Part shown: piece after piece, positions 17,601 through 63,583 of the stretch
Position numbering within the stretch: position 1 is the stretch's first letter
Layout of the letters: each line of letters starts with the position of its first letter
Source of the DNA: Cyanophora paradoxa CCMP329
Taxonomy: Eukaryota > Plantae > Glaucophyta
NCBI GenBank assembly: GCA_004431415.1
Contig: QPMI01000516.1
Span: forward strand, 62,001-126,000
Length of the DNA: 64,000 bases
Direction: 5' to 3'
Notes under the pieces: generated by a model
Told to the model about the DNA's origin: nothing
Database searches by the model: none
Seen by the model: only the letters and a program-made list of their open reading frames with translations
Position numbers and translations under genes: made by a program

Positions 17601-17736
17601 TCGAAGGGCGGGCGCGAACCGCGGCAGCGACGGCGTCTGGCGCGGAGAGACGAGGGTGCGGACGTCCTCGCGTATCGGACTCGCTGGATGCTGCAGAGCT
17701 CGCCTCACGCTTCCCCTTCGCGCCAGCGCCGTCCAT
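14610..17736 (-). CDS. F-box / leucine-rich repeat protein (multi-exon)
   Basis: F-box-like LLGLPDALLHRIVRL...LRRVCRRL followed by LRR-like units (LRALRV, LPHLSVLDL, LQRLLID, LRVLDL, LRELSV). Confidence 0.65.
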
Positions 17737-43966: not shown

Positions 43967-46960
43967 GACGGGCTCGGGCTCGGCGTCTCCGTCGGCGACG
44001 GGCTGGGCGACGGGCTCGGGCTCGGCGTCTCCGTCGGCGAGGGGCTGGGCGACGGGCTCGGGCTCGGCGTCTCCGTCGGCGACGGGCTGGGCGACGGGCT
44101 CGGGCTCGGCGTCTCCGTCGGCGAGGGGCTGGGCGACGGGCTCGGGCTCGGCGTCTCCGTCGGCGACGGGCTGGGCGACGGGCTCGGGCTCGGCGTCTCC
44201 GTCGGCGACGGGCTGGGCGACGGGCTCGGGCTCGGCGTCTCCGTCGGCGACGGGCTGGGCGACGGGCTCGGGCTCGGCGTCTCCGCCGGCGACGGGCTGG
44301 GCGACGGGCTCGGGCTCGGCGTCTCCGTCGGCGACGGGCTGGGCGACGGGCTCGGGCTCGGCGTCTCCGTCGGCGACGGGCTGGGCGACGGGCTGGGGCT
44401 GGGCGTCTCCGTCGGCGAGGGGCTGGGCGACGGGCTCGGGCTCGGCGTCTCCGTCGGCGACGGGCTGGGCGACGGGCTCGGGCTCGGCGTCTCCGCCGGC
44501 GACGGGCTGGGCGACGGGCTCGGCTCGGCGTCTCCGTCGGCGACGGGCTGGGCGACGGGCTCGGGCTCGGCGTCTCCGTCGGCGACGGGCTGGGCGACGG
44601 GCTCGGGCTCGGCGTCTCCACCGGCGAGGGGCTGGGCGACGGGCTCGGGCTCGGCGTCTCCGTCAGCGAGGGGCTGGGCGACGGGCTCGGGCTCGGCGTC
44701 TCCACCGGCGACGGGCTGGGCGACGGGCTCGGGCTCGGCGTCTCCGTCGGCGACGGGCTGGGCGACGGGCTCGGGCTCGGCGTCTCCGTCGGCGAGGGGC
44801 TGGGCGACGGGCTCGGGCTCGGCGTCTCCGTCGGCGAGGGGCTGCAGCTGGGCGACGGGCTCGGGCTCGGCGTCTCCGCCGGCGACGGGCTGGGCGACGG
44901 GCTCGGGCTCGGCGTCTCCGTCGGCGACGGGCTGGGCGACGGGCTCGGGCTCGGCGTCTCCGCCGGCGACGGGCTGGGCGACGGGCTCGGGCTCGGCGTC
45001 TCCGTCGGCGAGGGGCTGGGCGACGGGCTCGGGCTCGGCGTCTCCGCCGGCGACGGGCTGGGCGACGGGCTCGGGCTCGGCGTCTCCGCCGGCGACGGGC
45101 TGGGCGACGGGCTCGGGCTCGGCGTCTCCGTCGGCGACGGGCTGGGCGACGGGCTCGGGCTCGGCGTCTCCGCCGGCGACGGGCTGGGCGACGGGCTCGG
45201 GCTCGGCGTCTCCGTCGGCGAGGGGCTGGGCGACGGGCTCGGGCTCGGCGTCTCCGTCGGCGACGGGCTGGGCGACGGGCTCGGGCTCGGCGTCTCCGTC
45301 GGCGAGGGGCTGGGCGACGGGCTCGGGCTCGGCGTCTCCGTCGGCGACGGGCTGGGCGACGGGCTCGGGCTCGGCGTCTCCGTCGGCGAGGGGCTGGGCG
45401 ACGGGCTCGGGCTCGGCGTCTCCGTCGGCGACGGGCTGGGCGACGGGCTCGGGCTCGGCGTCTCCGCCGGCGACGGGCTGGGCGACGGGCTCGGGCTCGG
45501 CGTCTCCGTCGGCGACGGGCTGGGCGACGGGCTCGGGCTCGGCGTCTCCGTCGGCGACGGGCTGGGCGACGGGCTCGGGCTCGGCGTCTCCGTCGGCGAC
45601 GGGCTGGGCGACGGGCTCGGGCTCGGCGTCTCCGCCGGCGAGGGGCTGGGCGACGGGCTCGGGCTCGGCGTCTCCGTCGGCGACGGGCTGGGCGACGGGC
45701 TCGGGCTCGGCGTCTCCGTCGGCGACGGGCTGGGCGACGGGCTCGGGCTCGGCGTCTCCGCCGGCGACGGGCTGGGCGACGGGCTCGGGCTCGGCGTCTC
45801 CGTCGGCGACGGGCTGGGCGACGGGCTCGGGCTCGGCGTCTCCGCCGGCGACGGGCTGGGCGACGGGCTCGGGCTCGGCGTCTCCGTCGGCGACGGGCTG
45901 GGCGACGGGCTCGGGCTCGGCGTCTCCGTCGGCGAGGGCTGGGCGACGGGCTCGGGCTCGGCGTCTCCGTCGGCGACGGGCTGGGCGACGGGCTCGGGCT
46001 CGGCGTCTCCGCCGGCGACGGGCTGGGCGACGGGCTCGGGCTCGGCGTCTCCGTCGGCGACGGGCTGGGCGACGGGCTCGGGCTCGGCGTCTCCGTCGGC
46101 GACGGGCTGGGCGACGGGCTCGGGCTCGGCGTCTCCGCCGGCGACGGGCTGGGCGACGGGCTCGGGCTCGGCGTCTCCGCCGGCGACGGGCTGGGCGACG
46201 GGCTCGGGCTCGGCGTCTCCGTCGGCGACGGGCTGGGCGACGGGCTCGGGCTCGGCGTCTCCGTCGGCGACGGGCTGGGTGACGGGCTCGGGCTCGGCGT
46301 CTCCGTCGGCGACGGGCTGGGCGACGGGCTCGGGCTCGGCGTCTCCGTCGGCGACGGGCTGGGCGACGGGCTCGGGCTCGGCGTCTCCGTCGGCGACGGG
46401 CTGGGCGACGGGCTCGGGCTCGGCGTCTCCGTCGGCGACGGGCTGGGCGACGGGCTCGGGCTCGGCGTCTCCGTCGGCGACGGGCTGGGCGACGGGCTCG
46501 GGCTCGGCGTCTCCGTCGGCGACGGGCTGGGCGACGGGCTCGGGCTCGGCGTCTCCGTCGGCGACGGGCTGGGCGACGGGCTCGGGCTCGGCATCTCCGT
46601 CGGCGACGGGCTGGGCGACGGGCTCGGGCTCGGCGTCTCCGTCGGCGACGGGCTGGGCGACGGGCTCGGGCTCGGCGTCTCCGTCGGCGACGGGCTGGGC
46701 GACGGGCTCGGGCTCGGCGTCTCCGCCGGCGACGGGCTGGGCGACGGGCTCGGGCTCGGCGTCTCCGTCGGCGACGGGCTGGGCGACGGGCTCGGGCTCG
46801 GCGTCTCCGTCGGCGACGGGCTGGGCGACGGGCTGGGGCTGGGCGTCTCCGTCGGCGAGGGGCTGGGCGACGGGCTCGGGCTCGGCGTCTCCGTCGGCGA
46901 CGGGCTGGGCGACGGGCTCGGGCTCGGCGTCTCCGTCGGCGAGGGGCTGGGCGATGGGCT
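43967..46960 (-). repeat. Coding minisatellite, 42-bp unit, about 71 copies, encoding ([14 protein letters not shown])n
   Basis: Plus-strand unit GGGCTCGGGCTCGGCGTCTCCGTCGGCGACGGGCTGGGCGAC. Single-G losses near 44521 and 45937; 6-bp insertion at 44845-44850. Confidence 0.97.
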
Positions 46961-49169
46961 GGGAGTTCGAGTAGGTGATGGAGTTGGCGTTCCATTACTG
47001 ACAGCAGCGGACAACTTGTGAACGTAGATGCGACCCTCTGGGGAGGATTATAGTGAGTTAAGAGTCGCGATCAAGGCAAGGAAATGCAGTCGGAATGTTT
47101 GCAATTTGCGGGTTTCGTGTTTTGAATAGAATTAAGCGAAAACATCCAGTTCTAAAAAATGTTTGACTCACCGCCCCAAGACACGTAAATCGCCGATTGG
47201 CTGTTGACCGAAGCCATGCCATACATGGCACTACCCACACCGCTGCGTGTATATATTGTGGATTAATTTATATTTAGTCGAGAGAGTCGGTTTGCATTGC
47301 GGGTGCAAGTCGTCTTGTTACCTGGCTGGCTGTGCGATGGTCTCGCTCGTCACTCGGATTCCAGAGCTGTGCACGCGCGCGGTTGTTTCAGGGGGCTGGA
47401 GTCGCAGTACTAGTGGGTTTACAATCTGTGTAATCTTTGTGCATATATACCGCGCTTAAAAAATGCGCTGACATAGTATTGTATACTTGCACACTAGTCC
47501 TTCATGATCATATATATCGCAAGCTCGAGCACCGCACCTATCGTAAGCGAACACCGACGTGCCCGCTCCAACGTACAGCCTCCATCTGTCCATATGCATG
47601 GGATAAATTTGTCAGCTAATGTAAACAGATCGGATTGGTCTATGTAATATTAATGAGCTTGTGTGCGGTACAATTTGTTAGAATGAAGACGGACCCGCCA
47701 GCACGAACGATGTCCATACCGCCGGGCGTGCCACCGAGCGAGCTTACGAATGTTTGTGCGGTAACTGACGCGAGGTCTTCGGCGTCAATCTGTCCGATCC
47801 GGTGCTTCAAAGTCAGCATGCGGCACTGATTAAAAAAAACGTCAAAGACCTTGTAAAGAGTCTGAGCAAGAGCGACATAGAAGATGTCGCTGTCAGGATC
47901 CCGAGCCAAGCAGTCTGGAGCAGGAAGCTGGGTTGAAGTGCCGACTGAGCTTATGACTACCTTGTATCCCGACCCTAATGCGCATTTCTGATTAATGAAC
48001 ACGACGGCCGAAAACATAAAAAATACGAGAACGCCTCGAAGCTTTTTGTATTGAGCAGTTCTATATCGCGCGCCAATTTTATTATTAACGCATGCGCTCA
48101 AGTCCGCGGCCGCACCATCGAGATTCATGCTTGCAAGGGATCTTGAATGAGCCATCCAGAATACACGATTGCTCGTGCTCGAATAAACGACCCCATAGAC
48201 GGCCGAGCCAACTGCTCTCGCAAACCGACACAGTAAGCGTTTTGTCAGAGGGCAAATGCGATTGCGATTGCAATATTCAATACAAAGTTTTAAATGCTCA
48301 CCGTTAAAGAAATCGGTGACCCCAGATCCACCTATAGTAAGGTCGACCTTCCGAATCTTCAAGTTGTCCTGCTCCATCACAATGTCATTGGGCAACCAAA
48401 GCAGCGAGGCTCGCCCAGGACTCTCGCACCGAGTCCGCTACAAAAAGAAGAGTCGAAGATGCGGCCGTTACACCATTCAATGTGCTGCGCATGCGAGCGG
48501 GCGAATCAACCAGTGCTCAAATGATTCTTTTAAGACTCCGATCGCTTATAATTATATATCACCTGAATAGGGCACTTGTGAGGGTTCTCGAGTTGGTAGA
48601 ACCTGACAATTATGATTCGGATGAGTGTGCGTAAATCGTTTATTAGAGCTTCGCGATCGGAATCAAACTGCGCGCGCACCATAGTTCTCCTCGTGGCCGG
48701 CAACAAGCGCCATAGTACAAGAAGAGCCAGACTGCCTGATACGAAACAAGCCGGTCTCGGTCGTCGCGTACAGGTGTCCGTCAAACGCGCTGTAATGAAG
48801 AGCTGCAAGACGAGCACGCGCATCGCTGAGTCAATGCATGTAGTATGCGTATATATAGCGATAGAAGCACCTCTGAGGTAGTTGAAAATAGCTAGCGTTC
48901 CAGAACCTGTGGAAACATAAATGAGTTAGCTGCAATTTCAGTTGAGCAACCTCATGGCCATCTATCAACGATCTCGCTGGGTGTAAATATACAGTTTCAA
49001 AAAAACAAGCTGTGCGTGATGTGAATAAAGCTAGATTATAATTACTTGATTAGAACACATCGTACCTTCGTTGGCCGTGTCAGTGGGCTCTCGCCCAATG
49101 CAAAACCGTGACGTTTGCGAAGCCATAGTTGCCGGAGTGCCAGGAACAGCCGGCGTCGGCACCGGAGTC

Positions 49170-49545
49170 TGGCTAGGCGTCGGCGAGGGGCTGGGCGAAG
49201 GGCTCGGGCTCGGCGTCCTTGTCGGCGACGGGCTGGGCGACGGGCTTGGGCTCGGTGTCGACATCTCCATCGGCGACGGGCTTGCAGTAGGGCTCGGCGT
49301 CTCCGGATCCGTCGGCGGCACGCTCGGGCTTGGCGTCTCCATTTCCGGATCCGTGGCGGAGGGGTTGGGTGACGGGCTCGGTGTCTCCGTCGCCGTCGGC
49401 GAGGGGCTGGGCGACGGGCTTTGTGTCTCCGTGGGAGGCACGCTGGGGCCTGGCGTCTCGGTCTCCGGATCGGTGGGCAACGGGCTGGGCGACGGGCTCG
49501 GGCTCGGCGTCGGAGTGCGTGAGGGGCTCGGTGTGGGGCTGGGTG
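49170..49545 (-). repeat. Degenerate second array of the same Ser/Pro/Thr repeat
   Basis: ORF 49031-49480 translates as [28 protein letters not shown].... Confidence 0.85.
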
Positions 49546-50418
49546 TCGATGTCGGGAGGAATGCCTTGTGCGCGAATATCCGATTCCCTGAACAGCCCAG
49601 TGAGCCAATGTTTAAACCAGCGCACCGAGCAATGTGAACACTAGGAGGGCGCTTAGGTTAGAGCTGCTCCAGGCAGACTCCGACTGTGACTCACCGCCCC
49701 AGACCACGTACATGGACGAGGAAGCATTCACAGTTGCGAGCCCAGTCCGGGGCTGCGTCCCGCTGCGCGCGCGCGCGAATGTGTCCGGTCAATTGCAAGA
49801 AATACGCACGCGTACGAAGATTTCGAAGTGCGTAAAGAAAGTCGAACCTGACGGGCGTAGCGAAGTTCTCGCTTGCGACTGTGGAAGACGAAGTCCCCGA
49901 GGCCGAAAGCCTGCGCGTGACTTGTCAAAATATGATTGCAATTTGTATTCTCAAGCGTGTACTTTTGCGCCGCGTTTTCAAGACTGTCAAGGCTTCAGCG
50001 TTTTAGATCATGTGTTGACGCACCCGTATGCTTGGACGCTGGTGTCGGAGCCCACGTACAGCCTCCAAAACCTGCTCGGGTCTCACTGTAAGCGGACGCT
50101 GCACGCGCCGGCCCTGCACAGCGCCAGGCATGGCAGAGAGAGGCGCACGTTCCGGATCGGATTACTTCAACCCCTGCCGCGGCATTCGAGCCGGTGGATG
50201 CGACGAACGTCGTTACTGCACTAGCGGACACGGGGTACGTTCCCCCGCTGACGTCGACCTGGACGCACGAGAGGTTTCATATTGAGATCCCGTGCACATG
50301 GAGGGACGAGGAGTGAGCGAAAGGAGCCCGCGCGCATACCCGCGAGACCACGTTCTGAACTGCAACGAACAGCACGGCGCCGTCGACTGCGATGGCGTCG
50401 GGGTTGACAGTGCCTCCG

Positions 50419-50423
50419 GACGC
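50419..50423 (+). repeat. Left target-site duplication GACGC (GACGCA if the first terminal A is counted)
   Basis: Identical to 61808-61812 (or 61813). Confidence 0.9.
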
Positions 50424-50598
50424 AAAAAAATGTAAATTGGGCATACTGCCCCACGAAATTATATATGGTAATAAAATCGAATAAACTTTAAACTTTTCGA
50501 TATTCCACAAACGTTTCGACAAAACCAAATCAAAAACAAACCATTCACAGTAACCACACAAAACAAAACGTAAAATCTCAGTAAGCCTCAGTAACAAC
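50424..50598 (+). repeat. Left terminal inverted repeat (175 bp)
   Basis: AAAAAAATGTAAATTGGGCATACTGCCCC...CTCAGTAACAAC is the reverse complement of 61633-61807, with one mismatch (50531 vs 61700). Confidence 0.97.
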
Positions 50599-50969
50599 TT
50601 AAAACCTCTCATTTTTTACTGTATTTTTTGAACGCTTTTTTACTGTATTTTCTACACTAGAAATGACGATAGAAACGACAATAAAAACAATAGAATTTAA
50701 ATTGTTTTTTAATCGTATATATGTCAATATATCAATGTAGTATATATGATATATATCATGTAAAATCGATTTATAGTCATACCTATAACATATCGATTTG
50801 TGTATATGTGATATATATATATATATGACGTCATAATGACGATACATATGTATATGATATATATGACATACCACGTGACTCGGGAGATCATGACGATCAC
50901 GGCGATGTGTTCATTATCATATGCATGACTTGGACCAATCAGCTATCGATGACTCTTCTGTGGCTCACA

Positions 50970-51078
50970 GGTGGCTCATCGATAGATCAATGGGTCTTAT
51001 CACATCATCGGTGGCTCATCGATAGATCAATAGGTCTTATCATATCATAGGTGGCTCATCGATGGATCAATGGGTCAT
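50970..51078 (+). repeat. 40-bp tandem repeat, about 2.7 copies, in the non-coding left arm of the element
   Basis: GTGGCTCATCGATRGATCAATRGGTC recurs at 50971, 51011 and 51051. Confidence 0.9.
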
Positions 51079-51140
51079 ACAACATTATCGATCTCGGATC
51101 GATAGATGAATGGTTCAATATTTATCAGTGGTTGAGTTTC

Positions 51141-51218
51141 GTAGTATATACTCGTAGTATAAACTTGTAGTATAATTCCATAGTATAAATCCGTAGTATA
51201 TACTCGTAGTTGATACTC
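51141..51218 (+). repeat. 13-bp tandem repeat, 6 copies
   Basis: GTAGTATATACTC GTAGTATAAACTT GTAGTATAATTCC ATAGTATAAATCC GTAGTATATACTC GTAGTTGATACTC. Confidence 0.85.
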
Positions 51219-51452
51219 GTCGTAGAAACCCCGGGAATAACTTGAACCGGGGTATATATTTGTTCGACATTTCGTCGAAATTTCGGTAAATCGATTATCG
51301 GCATCTTCAAACGCTTGTATCTCACCACCAGATGGTCAACTCGCAACGTTTTGCATAGCGTTTTGAAGCGCTTGTTAAGCTCTACGCAACTACGTAATCA
51401 TCGTAGTATTTCAAGCTACCTTGTCATACAATATTTCTCACAAATCGTCCTT

Positions 51453-52210
51453 TCACACACTGATTGTGGTCATTTCTCGTTGGATCCGAGCCATCTGACC
51501 CCTTTTAATTGCTTTTCTCTTCACAAACTTCTTAAAGCCCTTCATATCATCATCAGTTAGTACTGCTCTATCAGTATAGGTCTTGATATCATAACCTTGC
51601 AGGCTCGCTATGACAGTTTGATAATTATAGCCCCATAGTCTATGCAATTCCTTGTAGGTCTTCTTATCCATTCCACCATTGTACTCATCAAAGGCGCAAT
51701 TGAACTCTTTTTCGTTCCCAAGAATATTGAAAAGACTACGAACTCAACATTTCGACGAATCGTAGTAGAAATAGAGCATAAACGCTGAACATTAAATATT
51801 ACCGAGATTGAATAATGTCTTCCACTCGTGACCAATTTAGATAACACAGCCGAATTGTGCATATCCAAATTTGAACCTATCATGTCATCGAGTATGATGA
51901 CTAGGTTATTTCGCTTTTCGTTATTCTCGATTCGTTTCTTTTGCATACTGATCAATCTCAAAACAATGTTATCATCCCATTCCTCATAGATGTTATCGGG
52001 ATGGGTGATGTCATTGAATTGCCCAGTAAAAGCTGTGGAACTAAATATTACAATCTGATCTATCTTGTCACGAAGCTCGTAAAGTAAGTATTTTGTAAAC
52101 ATTGTCTTACCTGTATTGGAGCGACCAACATTTAAAATTCTCGTTGGGATTCGAACTGTCTTACTCGGATTGAACTCCGGAATATCATCTAAGTTTACTG
52201 TGTTATCCAT
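51453..52210 (-). CDS. A32/FtsK-HerA-family genome packaging ATPase, with a 1-nt frameshift at about 51730-51733
   Basis: Walker A GRSNTGKT, Walker B LVIILDD, GRHYSISV motif, Q..(I)RRN motif. The reading continues in the neighbouring frame as FNILGNEKEFNCAFDEYNGGMDKKTY... to the stop at 51453. Confidence 0.92.
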
Positions 52211-52289
52211 TACAGTAATAAGATAAAAAACAAAATAAACCCCTTACCTACTAATTTTGCGCTTCCTACTCTAACGAAAGAAAAGAACT

Positions 52290-53516
52290 TTAGAAGTTCG
52301 AGACTTTCAGGGTAGAGATGTTGTAGCCATTTAGGACCATAACATTGTGTCGTAGGGCATAGATGTCAACCTGAACAGGAGCAGCATCAGTGCATCCCGA
52401 AACAGTGAGATCCATGTAACTCGAGCTGCTGTTGAAGAAATCCTGGTAACCCATAACCGAGTTCCGAAGCGAATCTTTTCCGGACTTGGAAAGAACAATT
52501 CCATAAACATTTCCAGACTCGAATCCGTACGTGGTATTGCCCACAGTAACACCCTTGTAGTGAGAAGGAATGTGATTGACAGCAGAGAGGAAACCGGAAA
52601 TGGGTTTGTTAGATATATCCAGGGAGCGATTGTTGTGGAAGATCTGGAACTGATCAATCTTAACAGCAGATTCATGACCGCAGAAATCCGAGTGAGTGTA
52701 GGTGTTAAGTTTGTTCACCTCTCGAACAGTCATCAGAATCGAGTGAACCAGACCAGAAACATTAGCGAGTGTAACCTCAACAGATTCACCAGCATCAGCG
52801 GTTTTGAGCGCTCGGGTCTTCTTGTGAATGACCTCTGTGATCGGGATGCGAATGCCACCTTGTTCGTTTGCCATTTTAAGGAGTGTCTCAGCCTCAGCCG
52901 AAGCAATGTTTACGAATTGGCAGATCAGAGAGCAATCCGCAAAGGTTACAGATCCACCAGCCGGAACTTGGACAATCGCAGCATCACGGAAATCAACCTC
53001 GATTGTTGGCATATCGGCTAGCGTACATAATGGGAAATAAGCTTCTTCCCAGAAAGCAGCGGGGATTCTAACGATGTATTCCATTGCTTCATCTGTGCTT
53101 TCACGATCTGTCTCTTTGAAGTAACCGAGAGAAGCATACATGCTGCTCATGGTAGCGTGATCATTATCGACCAGGGCGTTTACAGTGATCCAATCACCAG
53201 GGATAATATACTTGAAACCACCATGAACGAAACGGACCTCATTAATAAAAGAAGAACCACCATTGGGGAGGGTGCAGGCTACACCACCACCAGTGGCAAT
53301 CTTGAAATAGAGCGAAACACCAGCAAGGAGTTGCTTGCGAGGTAGATCAAAGTAAGCGGTATTCTTGAAGCCAAAAGTGTTGCCTCGGGGACGAACTTGC
53401 TCGAGGAATGGTTTGTATTTGGGGTTGGTTCCGATTTGGAGACCAGGGGAAAGATAAATTTGATCGGAACCGGGAGTTACGAGGAGTTCCTTCAGGGTAG
53501 TTCCAGTGAGTGCCAT
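52290..53516 (-). CDS. Major capsid protein, double jelly-roll (408 aa)
   Basis: Size and position next to ATPase and penton. Motifs FG....FDLPRKQLL..V.LYF, GDWI, IP..FW...FPL..L...IEVDFR and C-terminal VDIYALRHNVMVLNGY. Confidence 0.85.
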   Translation of the reverse strand: MALTGTTLKELLVTPGSDQIYLSPGLQIGTNPKYKPFLEQVRPRGNTFGFKNTAYFDLPRKQLLAGVSLYFKIATGGGVACTLPNGGSSFINEVRFVHGGFKYIIPGDWITVNALVDNDHATMSSMYASLGYFKETDRESTDEAMEYIVRIPAAFWEEAYFPLCTLADMPTIEVDFRDAAIVQVPAGGSVTFADCSLICQFVNIASAEAETLLKMANEQGGIRIPITEVIHKKTRALKTADAGESVEVTLANVSGLVHSILMTVREVNKLNTYTHSDFCGHESAVKIDQFQIFHNNRSLDISNKPISGFLSAVNHIPSHYKGVTVGNTTYGFESGNVYGIVLSKSGKDSLRNSVMGYQDFFNSSSSYMDLTVSGCTDAAPVQVDIYALRHNVMVLNGYNISTLKVSNF

Positions 53517-53568
53517 CTCTTATGTTTAAAATACCAAAAGAAATTTTTAAAATGCTTTATTAAACAGA
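53517..53568. promoter_or_regulatory. 52-bp AT-rich spacer between divergent MCP and penton genes (putative bidirectional promoter)
   Basis: Head-to-head ATGs at 53516 (-) and 53569 (+); the spacer contains TTTAAAAT twice. Confidence 0.5.
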
Positions 53569-54456
53569 ATGACGCGTTACTATCTCAATATTGATTCCAG
53601 GGACCGATCGGATGGAACCCCAACGAATTTCACATACAGACTCCCTTATGCGATCCAAAAGGTCAGAGCCTGTCGAGTAACGAACTTTGAGATGTTTCAC
53701 AATCTTTACAACCTCTCTGAAGTAGGAACCCTCACCACACAAACACTCGATAATGCTGGGAACCCAAAGAATAGAAACAACGAAGTCCTCCGAGGTGCAT
53801 ATACACCGGATTCACTGGTGAATTATCTGATCGCTCGCATTGGATCCCAGCCCTATAATCAAGCGGGTGGCGGAACTTACACTCGCCATTTCTATGTAAC
53901 CTATGATCCCACAACATTGCTTCTAAGGTTCATGTGTGAGGTTCCATTCTCAATCACTATGAACACTCAACTCTTAGCCAATTTCTGTGGTTTTGAAAAT
54001 GCTAACACACTGTACCAATCGAGTCCTCTATCATCTAATGTCACAGTTGGAGCCTTTACTTATGCTCACTACATTGATAGTGAAATGCCATTAGATCTAC
54101 TATTTAATTCCTATTTGCTTCTTCATGTTGATCCACTGAAAGGAAGATATGTGAGCAATAACAAACGAGATAACAATGCTATCGCGAAAATTGAGATTGA
54201 CCAAACGGTTGGCAGTCTATTAAAATATGATTCATCGAATAATTCCATGATCGTTCACGAGCAGAATGGCTTGGTTGAGGTTGAGACTCTAGATGTGAGA
54301 CTTTCTTACTGGAATGGAGCCACAGCAGACATTACTACCGACTGGTCGATGACTCTTGAACTGATTACTGAAGATGATAAAGATCTGACGAAAAAAGCAT
54401 TGAAGAATGTCATAAAAGAGTTGGAGGGACTCTACCTGCCGTTCTCACGGTCATAG
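53569..54456 (+). CDS. Minor capsid protein / penton, single jelly-roll (295 aa)
   Basis: N-terminal YLNIDSRDR....TNFTYRL...I..V and C-terminal LDVRL...NG......WSMTLEL patterns typical of penton proteins. Confidence 0.8.
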   Translation: MTRYYLNIDSRDRSDGTPTNFTYRLPYAIQKVRACRVTNFEMFHNLYNLSEVGTLTTQTLDNAGNPKNRNNEVLRGAYTPDSLVNYLIARIGSQPYNQAGGGTYTRHFYVTYDPTTLLLRFMCEVPFSITMNTQLLANFCGFENANTLYQSSPLSSNVTVGAFTYAHYIDSEMPLDLLFNSYLLLHVDPLKGRYVSNNKRDNNAIAKIEIDQTVGSLLKYDSSNNSMIVHEQNGLVEVETLDVRLSYWNGATADITTDWSMTLELITEDDKDLTKKALKNVIKELEGLYLPFSRS

Positions 54457-54492
54457 GAAATACTGTAGAATAAATTTGTTTCAATATTACAA

Positions 54493-55254
54493 ATGGCTCG
54501 CAAGACTCAACCCAAGAATTTCTTAGCCAAACCAGCCGCTGAAGCGGATGTTGGCAATGGTGAGAATGGAAGGAACTGGTATAAGAAATCGAAAGGACTC
54601 GCTGCATACGGAACTGGTGACCTCGAAAAGGAAGTCCATAAAGAACGAAACCAATTCACCCAAGCCACTACGAAAAACAGTAATGATGATAATGCCCTTG
54701 TTGACCAAGTCCCACTGAACCGCATGCCCGGAGCCAAACGAGGAATCAAGAAAGGACAGTTCAAATCATCCACAAAGGACAAGGTTGCATCATCATCGAC
54801 ACTGCTGAAACTGCTTGATGGTGGTGAGCGACTCTACTCAACCTATTCCGAGAAAGACCATCGCAACCGCTACTTTATTCGTTCAACCACTGGTGGACTG
54901 AAATCTGTAACATATCAGTATGCTAAGAGTCTTGTTGATGGTATTGCAGCAGAGACCAAAAACGAAAACAAGATCAAGGAACAGCCAATCACAAAGGAAA
55001 AGGTTGAGAAGAAACCAGAAGTAACCCATGAAGTTATTCCCGAACCTGTTCATGTGGCAAAAGACTCACCTACAGAATTGATTGCAAAGACCATTGAGTA
55101 TCAAGACTCCAACAAAACGGATTTGCCGGTTCTCAATAAGTCGATCCTTCGGGTTGCCACTTCGCAGGCTGATCCAGTCAACTCGATTCCAAATGCTGCC
55201 CCAATGGTCTCTGGATTCGCCAAGCTTGGTATAAGACCCGGTTATCGCCGTTAA
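54493..55254 (+). CDS. Hypothetical viral protein (253 aa, Lys-rich)
   Basis: Intact ATG-to-stop ORF tightly packed after the penton gene; no recognised domain. Confidence 0.7.
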   Translation: MARKTQPKNFLAKPAAEADVGNGENGRNWYKKSKGLAAYGTGDLEKEVHKERNQFTQATTKNSNDDNALVDQVPLNRMPGAKRGIKKGQFKSSTKDKVASSSTLLKLLDGGERLYSTYSEKDHRNRYFIRSTTGGLKSVTYQYAKSLVDGIAAETKNENKIKEQPITKEKVEKKPEVTHEVIPEPVHVAKDSPTELIAKTIEYQDSNKTDLPVLNKSILRVATSQADPVNSIPNAAPMVSGFAKLGIRPGYRR

Positions 55255-55607
55255 GGATCAATCTGAATAATATAATTTCTCAAACATTGTTAGCGCTACG
55301 TAACCAATCCTATCCCGTAGGCTCAAAACTTCTTCATTTTTATGGAGGCGTTGTAGAGCGAAGTGAAATATCCATAGGTAAATCACTTTAATCACCTGTT
55401 CTACCGGGTTCAGTGGTAGAAACTTGCAGCCGACAAGTGAACCTTCTGGGTATCGGTAGCTTTATCATTTTTCCAGCATCTTCTTTCGTACTGGATGCTC
55501 TGCAATCGGGACCAAAAATTGATTGGGTTCTCACAAAGAATATATACACGACATAAAAACTACTTAAAGATTTCTTAACATATATTAAGAGAGTAGAAAG
55601 GACAAGA

Positions 55608-55871
55608 ATGACGATCACAGAAGCCCAAAAGAAAGCAACTTACCGCTACCGTAAAACAGAAAAGGGTATGTTAGCGCTTGCTAGGATTAATGACAAACGC
55701 AATGCAAAATGGAATGAACTCTATAACAATGATGAAGAATTCAGACAAGCTCACATAATGACTTCATGCAAGGCTCAATATGTAAATAACACCATTCTCT
55801 ATGTAAAGTATCTATTTGACATTCCTCGTACTAACCGTGGACGTCCATCAAAGTATGTTAATGCTTGTTAA
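55608..55871 (+). CDS. Small basic protein (87 aa), putative DNA-binding, with AT-hook-like RGRP
   Basis: MTITEAQKKATYRYRK... and C-terminal PRTNRGRPSKY; AT-rich upstream region. Confidence 0.65.
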   Translation: MTITEAQKKATYRYRKTEKGMLALARINDKRNAKWNELYNNDEEFRQAHIMTSCKAQYVNNTILYVKYLFDIPRTNRGRPSKYVNAC

Positions 55872-56103
55872 TCGTTTTTCTCAGCGCGATTGCTCTGAGA
55901 ACCCGCGGAAACCGCGCTGGAAGCAAAACTATAAATCTTTCTGTTATTTTTAGAGTTCGATGATCGAGCCAACCCTTTGTTATTTTTATAAATGCCCTCG
56001 ACTGAATTTATTTTGTTGGAGACTTTTGGTTTTGCCGGTAAAATTTGACGCGAGTATAAAATGACTTAAGGAAATAAAATATAGAGTATATATAAAAGCG
56101 AAA

Positions 56104-59100
56104 ATGCCTCGCGCAGTAAGTATTCAGAATGCTAGAAAGAGACAAGGAATGCTAGCAAAGCTTGGTTACCTTCTTGGTGCCGGAATCATAAATGAAGAGC
56201 AATTTAACGCATTGGGTTACTTTGCCTTCATTAAGAGACTTCGATCTGCTGGTCTGAAGGACATAAGCGATACAATTGATGGTATTATTGCCAGGGGTGA
56301 GGGCAGACTGAATGAGCAGGATGAAATCGAGAGATTTGGTAACATTGAGGTTATTGAAGGTGGAAATAAGAAGACCAAAGCAGAGCGGATCGCTGAAAAA
56401 CGAGACAAGAGAGCTGAAAGGAAGCAGCAGAAGAAGCAGAAGAAAGCAGGGAGAACCGCTAAGAATGTTGAGAAGCAGAAGGTTAGAGAAAGAATAGCAA
56501 AGGAGGCAAAACAGCAGAGAGAGGATGAGAAGAAGCAACGAGAGGAGGCAGAGGTAATGCAGGCTATGAATAATCTCGTGAGTGAAGTAACTTGGAGGAA
56601 CCAGACCAAAAATAAAATCGCTTCTGCCCATGAGTTTATCGATAAGGTTGTTGGTTGGGATGCCTTCTACAATCGTTTTCGAGATGCTCTTCGTAACAGA
56701 CGAGGTATTAAGTATAACCTCTACAGCATGGCGAGATATGTGAAAGTGGCAACTGGAGAAATAAGAACCATGCAATGGACCACCCCATTCTACCTTCTTG
56801 TCAATGATCAAGAGATTGTTGATACTGTTGATGAATCAATTGATGCATTGCAGGAGGTTCTCACTTCACCTGATAGTTGGAAGCTAGAAAACATCTTAAC
56901 AGTTCGCTTGCAGATTCTTACTTATCAGCCACTCGCAGGTAGCTCCTATATTGACCTCCCACCAGGAATAAAAAAGCGTAAAGCTGTGATTAATCCACAG
57001 AACAAAGATAATAAATGTTTCGCATGGGCGGTAACTATTGGACTACATCAACATGAGCTATCTCATAAACACCGATACGATGTAAAGCGATACAAGAAGT
57101 ATGAGAATGAGTTCAATTGGAATAAGTTTGAGTTCCCATTCAAGAATGATCCTCGTCAGTACGAACGAGCATCAAAAATGATTGGTCGACCAATCAATGT
57201 GTATATGGTCGATCGATCACATATCGTTCCAGTCCATATCTGTAAGGATCCATCTAAACAACATCTTACAATTGACATTCTTCTGTGGACTGTCAACGAA
57301 AAAACCCACTATGGTTACATTTCTAGCATGTCAAGGTTAATATCCAATTCGCACCATGGAACTCGCCATTTCTGTAAAGCTTGTTTGAGAGGGTTCACCA
57401 GTGAAACGGTATTGGAGACCCACATTAAACACAACAAGTGTTACGATCGACCAAATGCAACAGTTGACACAATGCCACCAAGCGGATCTAAGACCAAGTG
57501 GGACCCAAAGAGACATGTTGACAAGACTGTATGGCATCCAATGTTTGTTGTTGCTGACTTTGAATGTATATTGCAAAAGGTGGATGAGACACGAGGTGAA
57601 AACACTGCAGTCTACCAGAAACACATTCCCAGTGGATACAAAATCATGGTTATCCACAACGATGAGATTATCAAACAGGTATTGTATCGAAAGGAGAACC
57701 CAGAGAACGATGATGAGGTTACACAGCACTTTATGGAGACACTGAAAACGATTGAATCCGATTTACTTGAGAAGCTTAGACATGTTGCACCAATGGTTAT
57801 GGAACAATGGCACAAAGAGGATTACAGAGATTCTGTTGCTTGCTACATCTGTGGAGATGAGTTTGGAGCTACTGTAACCGATGATAATGGTAACACATAT
57901 CAAGTTAAAAAGGTTAGAGACCACGACCACGTTACAGGAGACTACATTGGAGCAGCTTGCAATACTTGCAATCTGAAACGAAAGATCAATCCAAAGATCC
58001 CAGTTGTGTTCCACAATCTAAAAGGTTACGATGGACACTATATTCTGAAGGCTTTGAATTTCAATGAACCTGGTAAGGAAATTCGTTGCATTGCCCAGAA
58101 TTTTGAGAAGTTCATAGCATTCGATATGGGACCATACAAGTTCATGGACTCTCTGAATTTCATGGCTTCGAGCCTTGATGGTCTGGTAAAGAATCTCAGT
58201 AAGAATAATTTCAAATTCACCAATGAGTGGTGTGATTCTGTAAATTATTCACAGGAACAGCGAGAGCTACTGATGCAAAAGGGACACTTCCCTTACGATT
58301 ACCTGGATAGCTTCAAGAAACTCAGTGAGACCCAATTACCTCCCAAAGAAGCTTTCTACTCGAAACTCAATGATACTGAATTGAGTGATTCTGACTACAA
58401 GCATTGCCAGATGGTATGGGATGCTTTCAACTGCAAGACTCTCGGAGATTATCACGATATCTATCTTGCTACTGATGTTGCTCTGCTTGCTGACGTTTTC
58501 AATACATTCCGCAATGTTTGCTACAGTAATTATAAGATCGATCCTATTCATTTCATTTCAGCCCCTCACCTGTCGTGGTTCGCGATGTTGAAATATACAG
58601 GTGTGGAGTTGGAGCAATTGAGTGACCCTGAAATGTATAGATTCTTTGAACTTGGAATTCGTGGAGGTGTTTGCATGGTTCCCAATCGTTATGCAGAGGC
58701 TAATAACCCCTACATGAAGTCTTATGATCCATCAAAGTCAACAAAGTATATCACCACATGGGATGCCAACAATCTGTATGGGAAAGCGATGAGTTTCAAG
58801 CTACCCAGAGGTGGATTTGAGTGGATTGATGACATCGAGAATTTCGATTATATGGACTTTAATGTGGAAGGTGATAGAGGTGCAACTTTGGAGGTTGACT
58901 TGGAATATCCAGAACACCTACACGATCTTCACAGTGATTTACCTCTTGCTCCCGAATCTCTAATAATCACAAAGTCTATGATATCACCAACACAACTAGC
59001 CATGATTGGTGAGGAAAAATTACCCCAGACTCGTAAGTTAGTTCCCAATCTGATGGACAAGACCAATTACATCCTACACATCAAAAACTTGCAGTACTAC

Positions 59101-60132
59101 ATCTCAAAAGGATTGAAGGTAACAAAGGTTCATCGTGGGATTATGTATGATCAATCTGAGTGGCTGAGACCATACATTGATTTCAATACCGGACTGCGGA
59201 CGCAAGCTCGTAATGATTTCGAGAAAGATTTCTACAAACTCATGAATAACTCAGTTTTCGGAAAGACCATGGAGAACGTTCGCAAGCGAAGTAACATAAA
59301 GCTTTGCAACGATCCGAGGGTGCAGCTCAAACACAACGGCAATCCATTGTTGAAGACAGTGAAGATTATCAATGAGAATCTTACTGCTTTAGAGTTCTAT
59401 AAGGGTTCTATTATGTTGGATAAACCCATTTATGTTGGTCAGGCTATCTTGGATCTGTCCAAACTAATCATGTATCGTTTCCATTACGATTACATCATGG
59501 TGAAGTATGGACCTGGATCAGCCAAGCTGCTCATGACTGATACAGATTCCCTGTATTATCTGATTGAGACTGACGATATCTACAAAGACATGATTGAGGA
59601 TTCTCATTGGTTTGATCAGTCTGATTACAGCAAATCCCACATCTGTTACAACCCTAAAAATAAAAAGGTTCCCGGTTTGTTCAAGGATGATTGTGGTGAT
59701 TATCTCGTTACAAGGTTTGCTGGTTACAAACCAAAAGCATACTCCTACGAGAAGGAGTTGAATGTTAAGGCTCTGGGATCAGAAGAAAATGTAAAACAGG
59801 TGATTGCTGACAAGTTGAAGGATTTGTTAAGAGTGAAGTCGAATGCTACGGAAGCTGATGTTATTGATAGTAAGGTTAAGAAGTTGAAGGGAGTTCAGCG
59901 GTCAGTAGTGCAGAATAGGTTAGAGTTCCTACAATTCTACAACACTGTCATGTATCCAATGAAGGAGCGGGAGAAAGTAACAGTTCGAGGTTTCCGATCA
60001 AAGAACCACGAGGTAACAACGCAGGAAATGAAGAAAAGGGCATTCAATGCGCTCGATACTAAGAGGTATCTTTGTGAGGACCTCTATACTACTCTTGCGA
60101 TTGGACACTATAAAACAAAAACAACACTATAA
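56104..60132 (+). CDS. polB: Protein-primed family B DNA polymerase (1342 aa)
   Basis: ExoI ADFEC, ExoII FHNLKGYDGH, ExoIII YLATDV, GIRGG, Pol A WDANNLYG, Pol B KLMNNSVFGK, Pol C TDTDSL. Also N-terminal vOTU-like DNKCFAW...HYGYI, a Zn finger and an EndoVII-like insert. Confidence 0.97.
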   Translation: MPRAVSIQNARKRQGMLAKLGYLLGAGIINEEQFNALGYFAFIKRLRSAGLKDISDTIDGIIARGEGRLNEQDEIERFGNIEVIEGGNKKTKAERIAEKRDKRAERKQQKKQKKAGRTAKNVEKQKVRERIAKEAKQQREDEKKQREEAEVMQAMNNLVSEVTWRNQTKNKIASAHEFIDKVVGWDAFYNRFRDALRNRRGIKYNLYSMARYVKVATGEIRTMQWTTPFYLLVNDQEIVDTVDESIDALQEVLTSPDSWKLENILTVRLQILTYQPLAGSSYIDLPPGIKKRKAVINPQNKDNKCFAWAVTIGLHQHELSHKHRYDVKRYKKYENEFNWNKFEFPFKNDPRQYERASKMIGRPINVYMVDRSHIVPVHICKDPSKQHLTIDILLWTVNEKTHYGYISSMSRLISNSHHGTRHFCKACLRGFTSETVLETHIKHNKCYDRPNATVDTMPPSGSKTKWDPKRHVDKTVWHPMFVVADFECILQKVDETRGENTAVYQKHIPSGYKIMVIHNDEIIKQVLYRKENPENDDEVTQHFMETLKTIESDLLEKLRHVAPMVMEQWHKEDYRDSVACYICGDEFGATVTDDNGNTYQVKKVRDHDHVTGDYIGAACNTCNLKRKINPKIPVVFHNLKGYDGHYILKALNFNEPGKEIRCIAQNFEKFIAFDMGPYKFMDSLNFMASSLDGLVKNLSKNNFKFTNEWCDSVNYSQEQRELLMQKGHFPYDYLDSFKKLSETQLPPKEAFYSKLNDTELSDSDYKHCQMVWDAFNCKTLGDYHDIYLATDVALLADVFNTFRNVCYSNYKIDPIHFISAPHLSWFAMLKYTGVELEQLSDPEMYRFFELGIRGGVCMVPNRYAEANNPYMKSYDPSKSTKYITTWDANNLYGKAMSFKLPRGGFEWIDDIENFDYMDFNVEGDRGATLEVDLEYPEHLHDLHSDLPLAPESLIITKSMISPTQLAMIGEEKLPQTRKLVPNLMDKTNYILHIKNLQYYISKGLKVTKVHRGIMYDQSEWLRPYIDFNTGLRTQARNDFEKDFYKLMNNSVFGKTMENVRKRSNIKLCNDPRVQLKHNGNPLLKTVKIINENLTALEFYKGSIMLDKPIYVGQAILDLSKLIMYRFHYDYIMVKYGPGSAKLLMTDTDSLYYLIETDDIYKDMIEDSHWFDQSDYSKSHICYNPKNKKVPGLFKDDCGDYLVTRFAGYKPKAYSYEKELNVKALGSEENVKQVIADKLKDLLRVKSNATEADVIDSKVKKLKGVQRSVVQNRLEFLQFYNTVMYPMKEREKVTVRGFRSKNHEVTTQEMKKRAFNALDTKRYLCEDLYTTLAIGHYKTKTTL

Positions 60133-60137
60133 TAAGG

Positions 60138-61196
60138 ATGGACCAGGTTCTGAGTTATACCAAGTATCGACAGAAATTGATTAAAGAAGGTATCACATTT
60201 GATGAGGAAGAACTAAGAAAGCGTTTTAAAAATCAAGAGCTTGAGCAGATCTTTAAGAAGCCCAAAAAGCAAAAGTCTTTCTTGCGGATCATTGCTCCAC
60301 CCAATTCCTTTCAGGTTGATGTGATTTATTTCAAAAGCTACAAGACAGCAACACATGGAGTGGATAGGATGCTGGGATTTGTCGATATATTGAGTCGGAA
60401 AGCATTTGTATACCCTTTCAAGCCAAAGGATTCGAAAATCGATATTTTCAACAGGTTCAAAGTTGAGGCAGGCAAGGTTAGTGCTATCTCAGGAGACAAT
60501 GAGTTCTCTGCTGAGATTTATAGGAAATGGTGTGAGGAAAACAATGTTACACTCTACACTGATGTAGCTAAGAATGACCACATCACAGTAGGTGATAAAC
60601 TTGGTATTATCGATAGGTTCACCAGAACTTTTAAACAATATTTGAGAAAAGCAATAGTTTCGAGTGGGAACCCAAAATGGACTGATTATTACAAACAGGT
60701 TCTGGCAACTTACAACAACAGTCCACACACTTCCCTAAAGAATGATTCACCCAATGCAGTGTATGGGAATAACGAGAAAGAATCGTTCATATATTTGCGT
60801 GATGCATTGCATAACAAACGTATTAAAGAAGGTAGCCCAACAGTAAAGGAGGGAGATTATGTTCGAGCTGTAACTGAAAAGAAGACTTTCGATAAAGAAG
60901 GAGCAAGATACAGCAAACAAGTGTATAAAGTAGCAGGCAAGGTAGGTAATCGATTTAGTTTATTGGAAGAGAATGAGGGAGAGAGTCCAAAGGAAGTAAA
61001 ACGAAACTTTAAACTGAACGAGTTGCAAAAAGTAGATAAGGCAGCAATTGTTAAGATTCCCACACAGAAGCGTGTGGAGCGAGTGAAAAAAACAACGAAG
61101 GTGAATAGATTAGTAGCAAAAGAGGGTATCAAGCCCAATAGGAGCAAAGTAGTTAGGAAGAGGTATAATTTAAGAAGCGGATTGACTAGGCGTTAG
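60138..61196 (+). CDS. int: Retroviral-type (rve) integrase (352 aa)
   Basis: FQVDVI, VDILSRKAF, ISGDNEF, IIDRFTRTFK, YNNSPHTSL..SP and GDYVR...FDK...YS..VYKV motifs of Polinton integrases. Confidence 0.92.
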   Translation: MDQVLSYTKYRQKLIKEGITFDEEELRKRFKNQELEQIFKKPKKQKSFLRIIAPPNSFQVDVIYFKSYKTATHGVDRMLGFVDILSRKAFVYPFKPKDSKIDIFNRFKVEAGKVSAISGDNEFSAEIYRKWCEENNVTLYTDVAKNDHITVGDKLGIIDRFTRTFKQYLRKAIVSSGNPKWTDYYKQVLATYNNSPHTSLKNDSPNAVYGNNEKESFIYLRDALHNKRIKEGSPTVKEGDYVRAVTEKKTFDKEGARYSKQVYKVAGKVGNRFSLLEENEGESPKEVKRNFKLNELQKVDKAAIVKIPTQKRVERVKKTTKVNRLVAKEGIKPNRSKVVRKRYNLRSGLTRR

Positions 61197-61555
61197 GTTG
61201 TGAGGTATGAACCATCTTTCGATTCAACAATTTTCGTGATAGGTCTGAACACTTTGAAAATTTCTTTATTATGGATTCCTTTAACATACCAACCCTTATG
61301 AATGGGGTCCCATCTGAGACCATAAGATTTCGCTAATTGGATATCTTTGAAAGCTACCTGACAATACATTTTAACATTAATGTATTTGATTTCGTCTTCT
61401 GTTAGTTTTCGGAATTCTTTGAAGATCTCACTGTTTTCATCTTCAACAAACCATAGCTTCTTTTCAAAATCCCATTTTGCTCCTTTTGATTTCACCAATT
61501 CACGATCGTCATATCGAGAGAAAATGTAAAAGCGTTGTTGTGGCTTGGTTTCCAT
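61193..61555 (-). CDS. Tandem DUF5710-like domain protein (120 aa)
   Basis: Two copies of the motif: FSRYDDRELVKSKGAKWDFEKKLWFV and YCQVAFKDIQLAKSYGLRWDPIHKGWYV. Its end overlaps the convergent integrase gene by 4 bp. Confidence 0.75.
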   Translation of the reverse strand: METKPQQRFYIFSRYDDRELVKSKGAKWDFEKKLWFVEDENSEIFKEFRKLTEDEIKYINVKMYCQVAFKDIQLAKSYGLRWDPIHKGWYVKGIHNKEIFKVFRPITKIVESKDGSYLTT

Positions 61556-61632
61556 TTTTATTCAGATTATCAGATTATTTTTATATGAAACAATCAATGA
61601 GGAATAACCGAGATTATGATATAACATCGATT

Positions 61633-61807
61633 GTTGTTACTGAGGCTTACTGAGATTTTACGTTTTGTTTTGTGTGGTTACTGTGAATGGTTTGTTTTTT
61701 ATTTGGTTTTGTCGAAACGTTTGTGGAATATCGAAAAGTTTAAAGTTTATTCGATTTTATTACCATATATAATTTCGTGGGGCAGTATGCCCAATTTACA
61801 TTTTTTT
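61633..61807 (-). repeat. Right terminal inverted repeat (175 bp)
   Basis: Reverse complement of 50424-50598 with one mismatch. Confidence 0.97.
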
Positions 61808-61812
61808 GACGC
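61808..61812 (+). repeat. Right target-site duplication GACGC
   Basis: Identical to 50419-50423. Confidence 0.9.
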
Positions 61813-63583
61813 AGGTTGAGGAAGCGTGTATACTGCGGTTCCCGTACAGCTACCCGGCCATGATCGCGATCAGCCGGCGCAATCCGCAGAGCCGCAGATT
61901 CGAACGGATCCATGAACGCATAATTTGATTCGAGCCGCAGCGCACCTGGACGTGCATGCTGCGGATGCTGTCCACAGTGTGCGACTCGACTGGATGTAGA
62001 AGATGCGATTCACTGGCGCAGAATAAACCACCGCCATGACGTTACTCGAGCCTGTAGAGAGCACGCACACGTTACATTGCAGCCGGATATCGACCACAGC
62101 AAGCCTTTTATTTTCGGGTACTCAATCTACACAGAACGCGCACTGATCCAGTCCGACGACGTCCAGGTGCTGCCGCTGAGCGACAGGCGGCGAATCCGGT
62201 CGTTGCCCTGCCAGGCGCTGGCGTGAGCTTGAGCGGAGACGGACAGAATTCATTCTTTTGCCCCCGATCGCGAGTCCCCTGCGACCCTATATCTATGCAC
62301 CGTGTCCGCGACGAACAGTCGGGATGCGGAACTCGCAGTGACGCCGCTCAATGTGCTGTGCGAGACAGTGTTAATGGCCTATGGTCGAATTCCGGATAGT
62401 TTGCTGCAATATGAAGTACAATATGCAGCGCGCACTCGTACATAGCACTCGTCCCGGCGCCGTTGTCGCTGCCTGAAGCCGATATTAATAATGGGCTCAG
62501 ACAGAATGCGGTGATGTTTGATTTTGATTTAATTTTGATTTTGCCAGTTGGGCTCTCGTCTTCAGAGGCCTCTTAAATTACGACGTCGCAGACACGCAGA
62601 ATCGTGCACCGGTGCTAGAAGGGGAGAGTCGCCCGGAGATGAGTGCCGAGGTGCAGGTGCCGTCGACGCGAAACACGCCGGACACCGTGACGACGTACAG
62701 GTTCGAGTCGAAAGTGCTGTAGTGAGCGGCTGCGGAAGGGCACGGTTTCGATTTTAGTTTAAGACATATGTACATTGTTTACAGGCCTTTTTTCGATGGC
62801 GAACCTCGGATCGTGCTAAAGACTGCATTCGAGCCCGTTCCTGATCGATATCATGGGCGGAGCGGCGCGTCGACGTCAGAGTTTTAGAGAATCGGCGAAT
62901 AATTAATTAAAATAGATCAGGGGCAAATAGTGCCAGCGTTGTGGCGTTAATGACGCGCACCTGCGACCGAAGTTGCGGTGGAGGAGGCAGATCTTCCGAC
63001 ACAGAACGCAGAGGCCCCAGGAGACAGGCCGCTCAGCGCACTCGGAACGCCGGCCGGCGTCGGCGAAATTTGCAGGATAGCTCGTCGAATTTGAACGCTA
63101 GCGCCAGAGTCTGCTCGACCATCATGTGAATGACTCGTGATTGGTGAATTCTTATCATACAGTCAAAGTTTTCTACGAAATACGCATACACGCGCGCGCG
63201 CACCCCTGATCTCGGAGGATTTAACGCTCTCAGCGACCGAAATCGAATTATCCAGGGAATTGTCGAGCACAGTTGCGCCAGCGCCGTTCCATAATATTAA
63301 TGCTAGGGACGCCGCGAAGATGGCGAGAAACAGTGCTGCGAGCGCGGCGCCTCTGCTTGAACCTACGAAGGAGCATTTAGATGAGGCCAAATCATTTGAA
63401 TTAAAATTAATTATAAAGTAATATTCTGCCAAATCGTGCGCATGCGCACATGCGTATGCTCGCGTTACCCACGCGCCTGCCGCGATTGCGCTTATCCGCG
63501 GCCTGACCCGTGCACTTGTCGACGGCTTCGCTGCTGCAGCTGGTGCCGCCGACGCCTCCGCTGTCGTTGCTGCTGCAGCTGGT

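Follow-up and report, generated by a model that had tools for sequence, protein, structure and literature searches.

Polinton-like viruses (PLVs) are quoted as 14-40 kb in size in the text of PMC10120064 and PMC12220804, the second of which gives their target-site duplications (TSDs) as 5-6 bp. In the genome of Cyanophora paradoxa, Bellas 2023 counts 366 hits to major capsid proteins (MCPs), which form two unnamed clusters (272 and 94) outside the named groups (PMC10120064, Tables S2 and S4), and Bulzu 2025 lists 156 glaucophyte PLVs, of which 139 carry Pox_A32, 85 carry rve and none carries a protease, with several replicase types among them (PMC12220804, Table S6). Starrett et al. describe adintovirus-like sequences in C. 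paradoxa contigs (PMC8502044), and Sarre et al. 2025 report that repeats and viral genes of this organism carry CpG methylation and that its genome has giant-virus insertions (PMC12344493). For the protein-primed polymerase pPolB, a model with a terminal protein and a vOTU domain is given in bioRxiv 2024.03.18.585575.

We analysed an element of 11,384 bp at positions 50424-61807 of a 64-kb stretch of C. paradoxa DNA, called the window below. We consider it probable, with good confidence, that it is an integrated PLV of the multicopy capsid family catalogued in C. paradoxa, that it lies inside a host coding exon, likely placed there by its own integrase, and that it needs the packaging ATPase of a sibling to form virions if the frameshift in its own gene is real.

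An insertion in a host coding exon

The element ends in terminal inverted repeats (TIRs) of 175 bp (50424-50598 and 61633-61807) with one mismatch, at position 108, and is flanked by the two copies of a 5-bp direct repeat (50419-50423 and 61808-61812); the chance of matching flanks is about 1 in 1000 for one 5-mer. The length, the near-perfect TIRs and the TSD agree with what an earlier note on this DNA had listed. The left TIR begins with a run of seven A, and at the extreme ends (50424-50433 and 61798-61807) this 7-base homopolymer is followed by TG, with CA at the other end. AG-repeat ends are typical of animal polintons, and the ends of this element are unlike them. No part of the element occurs a second time within the window, and a search of the element against Rfam gave no match.

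The drop in GC relative to the host that had been remarked on before amounts to 0.399 in the element versus 0.635 in window positions 1-50423, and the ratio of observed to expected CpG is 0.81 inside and 1.18 outside. Eight intronless gene-like ORFs give a coding fraction of 0.82, and only 5 bp separate the pPolB stop from the integrase ATG, both as noted earlier. The intergenic gaps are, in order, 79, 52, 36, 353, 232, 5 and -4 bp, a spacing that fits the earlier description of tightly packed genes except for the gaps of 353 and 232 bp and a non-coding left arm of 854 bp (50599-51452). This arm contains a 40-bp unit repeated 3.6 times (50970-51113) and a 13-bp unit repeated 6.6 times (51139-51224), and has no Rfam match. 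A contig of sequencing run X14 skips 50907-51275, so some siblings lack the left-arm repeat block or have something else in its place.

The right flank (61808-62800) carries, on its minus strand, the upstream exons of a host gene, separated by five GT-AG introns of 80-137 bp and forming one open frame up to the insertion. The same frame continues beyond the element in the downstream half of the split exon (50340-50423, minus strand), which ends at a GT donor. Because the same open frame is present on both flanks, the insertion divides one coding exon of a host gene that is spliced. Followed from the host exons into the element, this frame reaches a stop 21 codons inside the TIR. The near-identity of the TIRs, the preserved duplication and a host frame without decay point to a recent insertion, as the earlier note had proposed. 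The element is present in sequencing runs of 2012 and 2024.

The product of the interrupted gene (41736-63000, minus strand) appears to be a large surface protein. Its exons have no Pfam match above the cut-off. We observed propeller-like repeats, whose motif suggests a beta-propeller (NHL-like), long tandem repeats rich in Ser, Pro and Thr (43900-47050 and 49030-49660) and, near 43200, what is probably a membrane helix. Several changes of frame within the long Ser/Pro/Thr repeat hint that the assembly contains indel errors. Elsewhere in the window, at 14660-17865, two host ORFs resemble F-box/leucine-rich-repeat proteins by eye.

The element stretch, whole or in part, was present in 20 of the 24 listed runs, and 14 runs, all under one organism label, held at least half of its words. 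Four runs were compared in detail: X1 and X14 (DNA), X15 and X24. We took X15 as RNA because spliced joints occur in X15 alone; all five host introns of the right flank are skipped there and in no other run. The right junction is bridged by an X15 contig (59232-61851) with 0 differences, while the X1 DNA contigs enter the element by 28 letters on the left and 29 on the right, under the bridging bar of 31 letters. Contigs of X15 do not cover the left flank at 49600-50481, and the joints listed (15 of 20) include none across an empty site; neither carries evidential weight. That the locus is an assembly chimera or a contaminant is hardly credible. No listed contig covers the whole element and the DNA junction contigs stop 28-29 letters inside, as a chimera would allow, but the target duplication, the host exon frame that continues across the empty site, the RNA contig over the right junction and the 14 runs of one organism label led us to reject this explanation.

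Two X15 contigs (58274-59261 and 59232-61851) together cover 58274-61851 and cross the right junction, with 0 differences from the window. At 59020 and 59040 they agree with the window, whereas the X1 and X14 DNA contigs have other letters. These private letters and the absence of any difference indicate that the RNA comes from this copy. The contigs themselves show neither strand nor single transcripts, and we took the strand from the adjoining host introns. On that strand, the host transcript likely reads into the element, in sense orientation for the DUF5710 gene at its right end and antisense across the integrase and polymerase genes. The exon insertion and the copy-specific RNA, a probable read-through, are new here and were absent from the earlier note.

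Replication and capsid genes

The core gene set attributed to the element in the earlier note comprised pPolB, an rve integrase, a double jelly-roll MCP, a penton protein and an A32 ATPase. Four of these were recovered, the integrase by a weak match, and the penton assignment depends on position and an N-terminal motif.

The largest ORF (56104-60132, plus strand) encodes pPolB, of 1342 aa, as judged by its relatives and conserved catalytic residues. Of 7984 scored sequences, 5486 are relatives with E values up to 1e-30. The best 120 share 37-44% identity with it, and all named ones among them are animal polinton or adintovirus proteins. The polymerase is of the Beta type of PMC8502044 (section 3.1), since PF03175 is absent. 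We aligned it with 119 relatives, leaving out P0006 as a fusion. Cys305 and His402 of the vOTU domain are conserved in all 119, and the vOTU, exonuclease and polymerase residues in 117-119 of them; by this alignment the catalytic residues are intact, and the protein has the classical-polinton arrangement of a putative fused terminal protein and a vOTU predicted to be active. In a quick, midpoint-rooted tree with no outgroup and no bootstrap (36 rows, 35 of them drawn from the best 120 by rank, name or Pfam label), it groups with four sequences of environmental origin (SH-aLRT 100) and is separate from the animal rows that bear names.

The next ORF (60138-61196, plus strand) encodes an rve-like integrase of 352 aa, recognised by motifs and by a weak BLASTP match (E 1e-5; 23% over 200 aa) to the integrase region of a polinton protein from a coral. 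It has no Pfam match and none in PDB sequences or phage records. Its third acidic catalytic residue is Asp, where DDE integrases usually have Glu. A metagenome scan with the integrase returned four loci with 33-34 residues matched, all of which were set aside; in the one inspected, L004, the match falls within an unrelated 471-aa transposase-like ORF.

Three small ORFs complete the set. A basic protein of 253 aa (pI 9.7; 54493-55254, plus strand) has no family match in Pfam, PHROGs or NCBIfam and is possibly a core DNA-binding protein. A basic protein of 87 aa (pI 9.8; 55608-55871, plus strand) likewise has no match above the cut-off in these three collections; the RGRP near its end is presumably an AT-hook-like motif. 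The third, of 120 aa (61193-61555, minus strand), contains two DUF5710 domains (PF18974, E 6.4e-15, two stretches). No ORF matches a maturation protease in Pfam or PHROGs, with the 253-aa ORF remaining without a family, and the intergenic arms contain no further open frame of protease size.

The ORF at 53569-54456 (plus strand, 295 aa) is a probable penton, or minor capsid protein: it adjoins the MCP gene and has a penton-like N-terminal motif. It had no match in Pfam, PHROGs, NCBIfam, PDB sequences or a close-relative scan of IMG/VR.

The MCP itself is encoded by an ORF of 408 aa (52290-53516, minus strand). This ORF had no match in Pfam above the cut-off, in PHROGs or in a word-index search (0 of 4079 candidates). 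HMMER, run in full against 1.84 billion representatives, found five relatives at E up to 0.001, with 24-28% identity, and the one that is named is a Cyanophora paradoxa protein; a profile search found two relatives. Three environmental relatives (P0124, P0125 and P0132) sit on contigs of 11.7-15.5 kb, which are perhaps small elements akin to this one from other hosts. A profile search of the PDB gave one weak match, the EhV-201 MCP (E 0.42). The fold predicted from the single sequence was unusable (pLDDT 30), whereas an AlphaFold2 model with a six-sequence alignment reached a pTM of 0.73. The top Foldseek matches of this model are the capsids of PBCV-1, EhV-201 and the iridovirus SGIV (E 5e-20 to 2e-18, TM 0.66-0.69), so that on the predicted fold the ORF is a double jelly-roll MCP. 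It also matches a published C. paradoxa MCP (row 24 of Table S2 in PMC10120064), with 292 of 299 residues identical (97.7%) and seven differences, counted by eye over the first 299 residues; the published sibling itself ends at residue 299.

The capsid model also bears on whether the element is a virophage-like parasite of giant viruses that serves its host as an antiviral defence. Such a role is described for Gezel-14T and mavirus in PMC10120064, giant-virus insertions are among the findings of Sarre et al. in C. paradoxa (PMC12344493), and the element is without transcription machinery of its own. Against this, PBCV-1 ranks first among the Foldseek matches of the capsid (TM 0.69) and the mavirus MCP only 49th (TM 0.48), host-driven nuclear transcription would suffice, and our literature search turned up no giant virus of C. 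paradoxa. We regard a virophage-like role as unlikely, and virophage membership was rejected on the fold of the MCP.

Sibling copies and the packaging ATPase

The element is multicopy, with many near-identical siblings. We counted 582 variant sites across it, and in X24 the TIR is attached to another flank. In X1, contig depth was 165-179 in the flanks, 721-794 over the polymerase and integrase genes and 1963 for the penton contig (0 differences); in X14 the corresponding depths were 4-5.75, 31-37 and 71.5. Contig depth is not copy number, but the ratio of about 2-2.5 within the element, between parts of similar GC, suggests that more copies share the capsid module than this polymerase. Joints that bypass the 87-aa ORF, the integrase or the DUF5710 ORF suggest the same. 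In X15, deep contigs at 51364-53568 represent ATPase and MCP genes of divergent siblings, from which other members of the family appear to be transcribed. Runs of 2019-2020 under the same label contain next to none of the element's words. How far the family is expressed may vary with strain or condition.

A family of this size could also be one that spreads mainly as a self-copying nuclear transposon with the capsid genes as passengers. Hundreds of related copies are reported for one genome (PMC10120064), and scans of IMG/VR with the MCP, its environmental relative P0124, pPolB, the penton and the ATPase, by a method that finds close relatives only, returned nothing related. We think this unlikely, as the capsid module is kept open, seemingly in more copies than the polymerase, and the ATPase and MCP sequences of siblings are present in the RNA of X15.

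The packaging ATPase (51453-52210, minus strand) is of the A32/FtsK type and matches Pox_A32 over residues 12-159 (E 7.1e-15). The match ends at residue 159, and the sequence expected for the C-terminus continues down to 51453 in a different frame, which places a one-base frameshift near 51729 in the gene as assembled. The element is thus not intact as assembled, contrary to the earlier note. At 51729, three X1 contigs and four X14 contigs differ from the window by one base, from which we infer that sibling copies have an unbroken ATPase. The frameshift in this copy is either a true mutation or an error of the assembly. Many such stops proved to be artefacts in Bellas 2023 (PMC10120064), and the sibling MCP published there is itself cut off at residue 299. 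A test by contigs would be weak because Logan contigs drop rare alleles. If the frameshift is real, this copy would need the packaging ATPase of a sibling to form virions.

If it is instead a homopolymer error of long reads, this copy would be intact and autonomous, able to excise, replicate and form virions, whether by itself or together with a giant virus. The remaining ORFs are all open, the polymerase motifs are intact and the TIRs differ at one position; siblings have the unbroken gene, stops of this kind are often artefacts (PMC10120064), and an intact copy is compatible with the assignment to the C. paradoxa family. On the other side, 3.6 kb of the right arm match the RNA contigs exactly, private letters included, which shows the assembly to be accurate there. 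We give an intact copy somewhat less than an even chance.

Relationship to described groups and a proposed life cycle

By comparison of its sequences, the element is a member of the unnamed C. paradoxa group of PLVs. Like the elements tabulated in PMC10120064 and PMC12220804, it combines an MCP of this type (292/299) with an rve integrase, an A32 ATPase and no protease, and a DNA polymerase is among their replicases; no family-level difference is shown. Its MCP falls within a 25%-identity MCP cluster of C. paradoxa (7 differences in 299 residues, by eye). Of the features of PLVs in the broad sense, a double jelly-roll MCP, an A32 ATPase (frameshifted), TIRs, a TSD and an integrase (weak match, E 1e-5) are present, and a penton is probable. 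The earlier suggestion of an undescribed lineage does not hold, given a 97.7%-alike capsid in Table S2 of Bellas 2023 and 156 glaucophyte elements in Bulzu 2025, though the group is without a name. Our literature search found no paper that maps this element; the five C. paradoxa loci in Dataset S1 of Bellas 2023 and the deposited sequences may include it. The gene map of this copy, its size of 11.4 kb, the exon insertion and the read-through RNA are absent from the text and table rows of PMC10120064 and PMC12220804 available to us.

With the Eupolintoviridae of animals (Beta-PolB, Polinton group 1; formerly Adintoviridae, taxon names as in PMC12451622) the element shares a Beta pPolB with vOTU and an EndoVII-like insert (37-44% identity), an rve integrase, an ATPase and TIRs. 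It differs from them in lacking their Ulp1/adenain protease, in a TSD of 5 bp instead of 6 bp and in its capsid, which has no detectable sequence relative in animal polintons and folds closest to those of Nucleocytoviricota. The MCP has five relatives at E up to 0.001 among the 1.84 billion representatives and lies outside the Maverick-Polinton-Adintovirus cluster, and both C. paradoxa clusters stand in the unnamed block of Table S4 (PMC10120064). Membership of the classical polintons was rejected on these grounds: no protease match in Pfam or PHROGs, the 5-bp TSD and the unrelated capsid. As described in PMC8502044, the MELD viruses of Blastocystis and Powellomyces are similar in joining an adintovirus-like PolB and integrase to unlike virion proteins in a small linear genome, but MELD is an operational, polyphyletic label. 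Mavirus and endogenous mavirus-like elements (Virophaviricetes) share pPolB and rve, TIRs, short duplications and low-GC islands with the element, but its capsid is not of the virophage type and it has no protease and no helicase. A protease-free morphogenetic module is shared with the Aquintoviricetes (PMC12220804); the element has pPolB and not a Tlr1-like helicase.

From known polinton biology, the linear genome would be copied by protein priming from the TIR ends, where the A-run would allow sliding-back initiation; release of the terminal protein would fall to the vOTU domain. At the target, the integrase would make a staggered 5-bp cut. Judging by gene content, MCP, penton and A32 ATPase would build and fill an icosahedral particle independent of a protease. 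Once inserted, the element would receive a transcript driven by the host promoter into the right TIR, whose stop 21 codons in would truncate the host gene product, and this transcript would likely run on antisense across the integrase and polymerase genes. Otherwise the element would likely be silenced by the CpG methylation that Sarre et al. report on repeats and on viral genes of C. paradoxa (PMC12344493).

In a much wider and speculative view, which we rate as a long shot, glaucophytes harbour an unnamed class-level lineage of integrating viruses of about 11 kb that are protease-free and have a giant-virus-like capsid swapped among replication modules. Copies in expressed host genes, such as this one, would then give antisense RNA over integrase and polymerase that helps to silence the family as a whole. 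This would amount to a defence by gene trap in the plastid lineage that branched off earliest.

On the reading we prefer, that of an integrated PLV of the catalogued C. paradoxa family, the element reveals no new kind of system. It provides a gene-level map for one member of a catalogued but unnamed glaucophyte virus group, below the usual size range, and joins an animal-polinton-type polymerase to a giant-virus-like capsid fold. In addition, it offers a clear example of insertional mutagenesis by a virus of this kind in an alga kept in culture, and transcription likely runs on from the interrupted host gene into the element, antisense to its integrase and polymerase genes.
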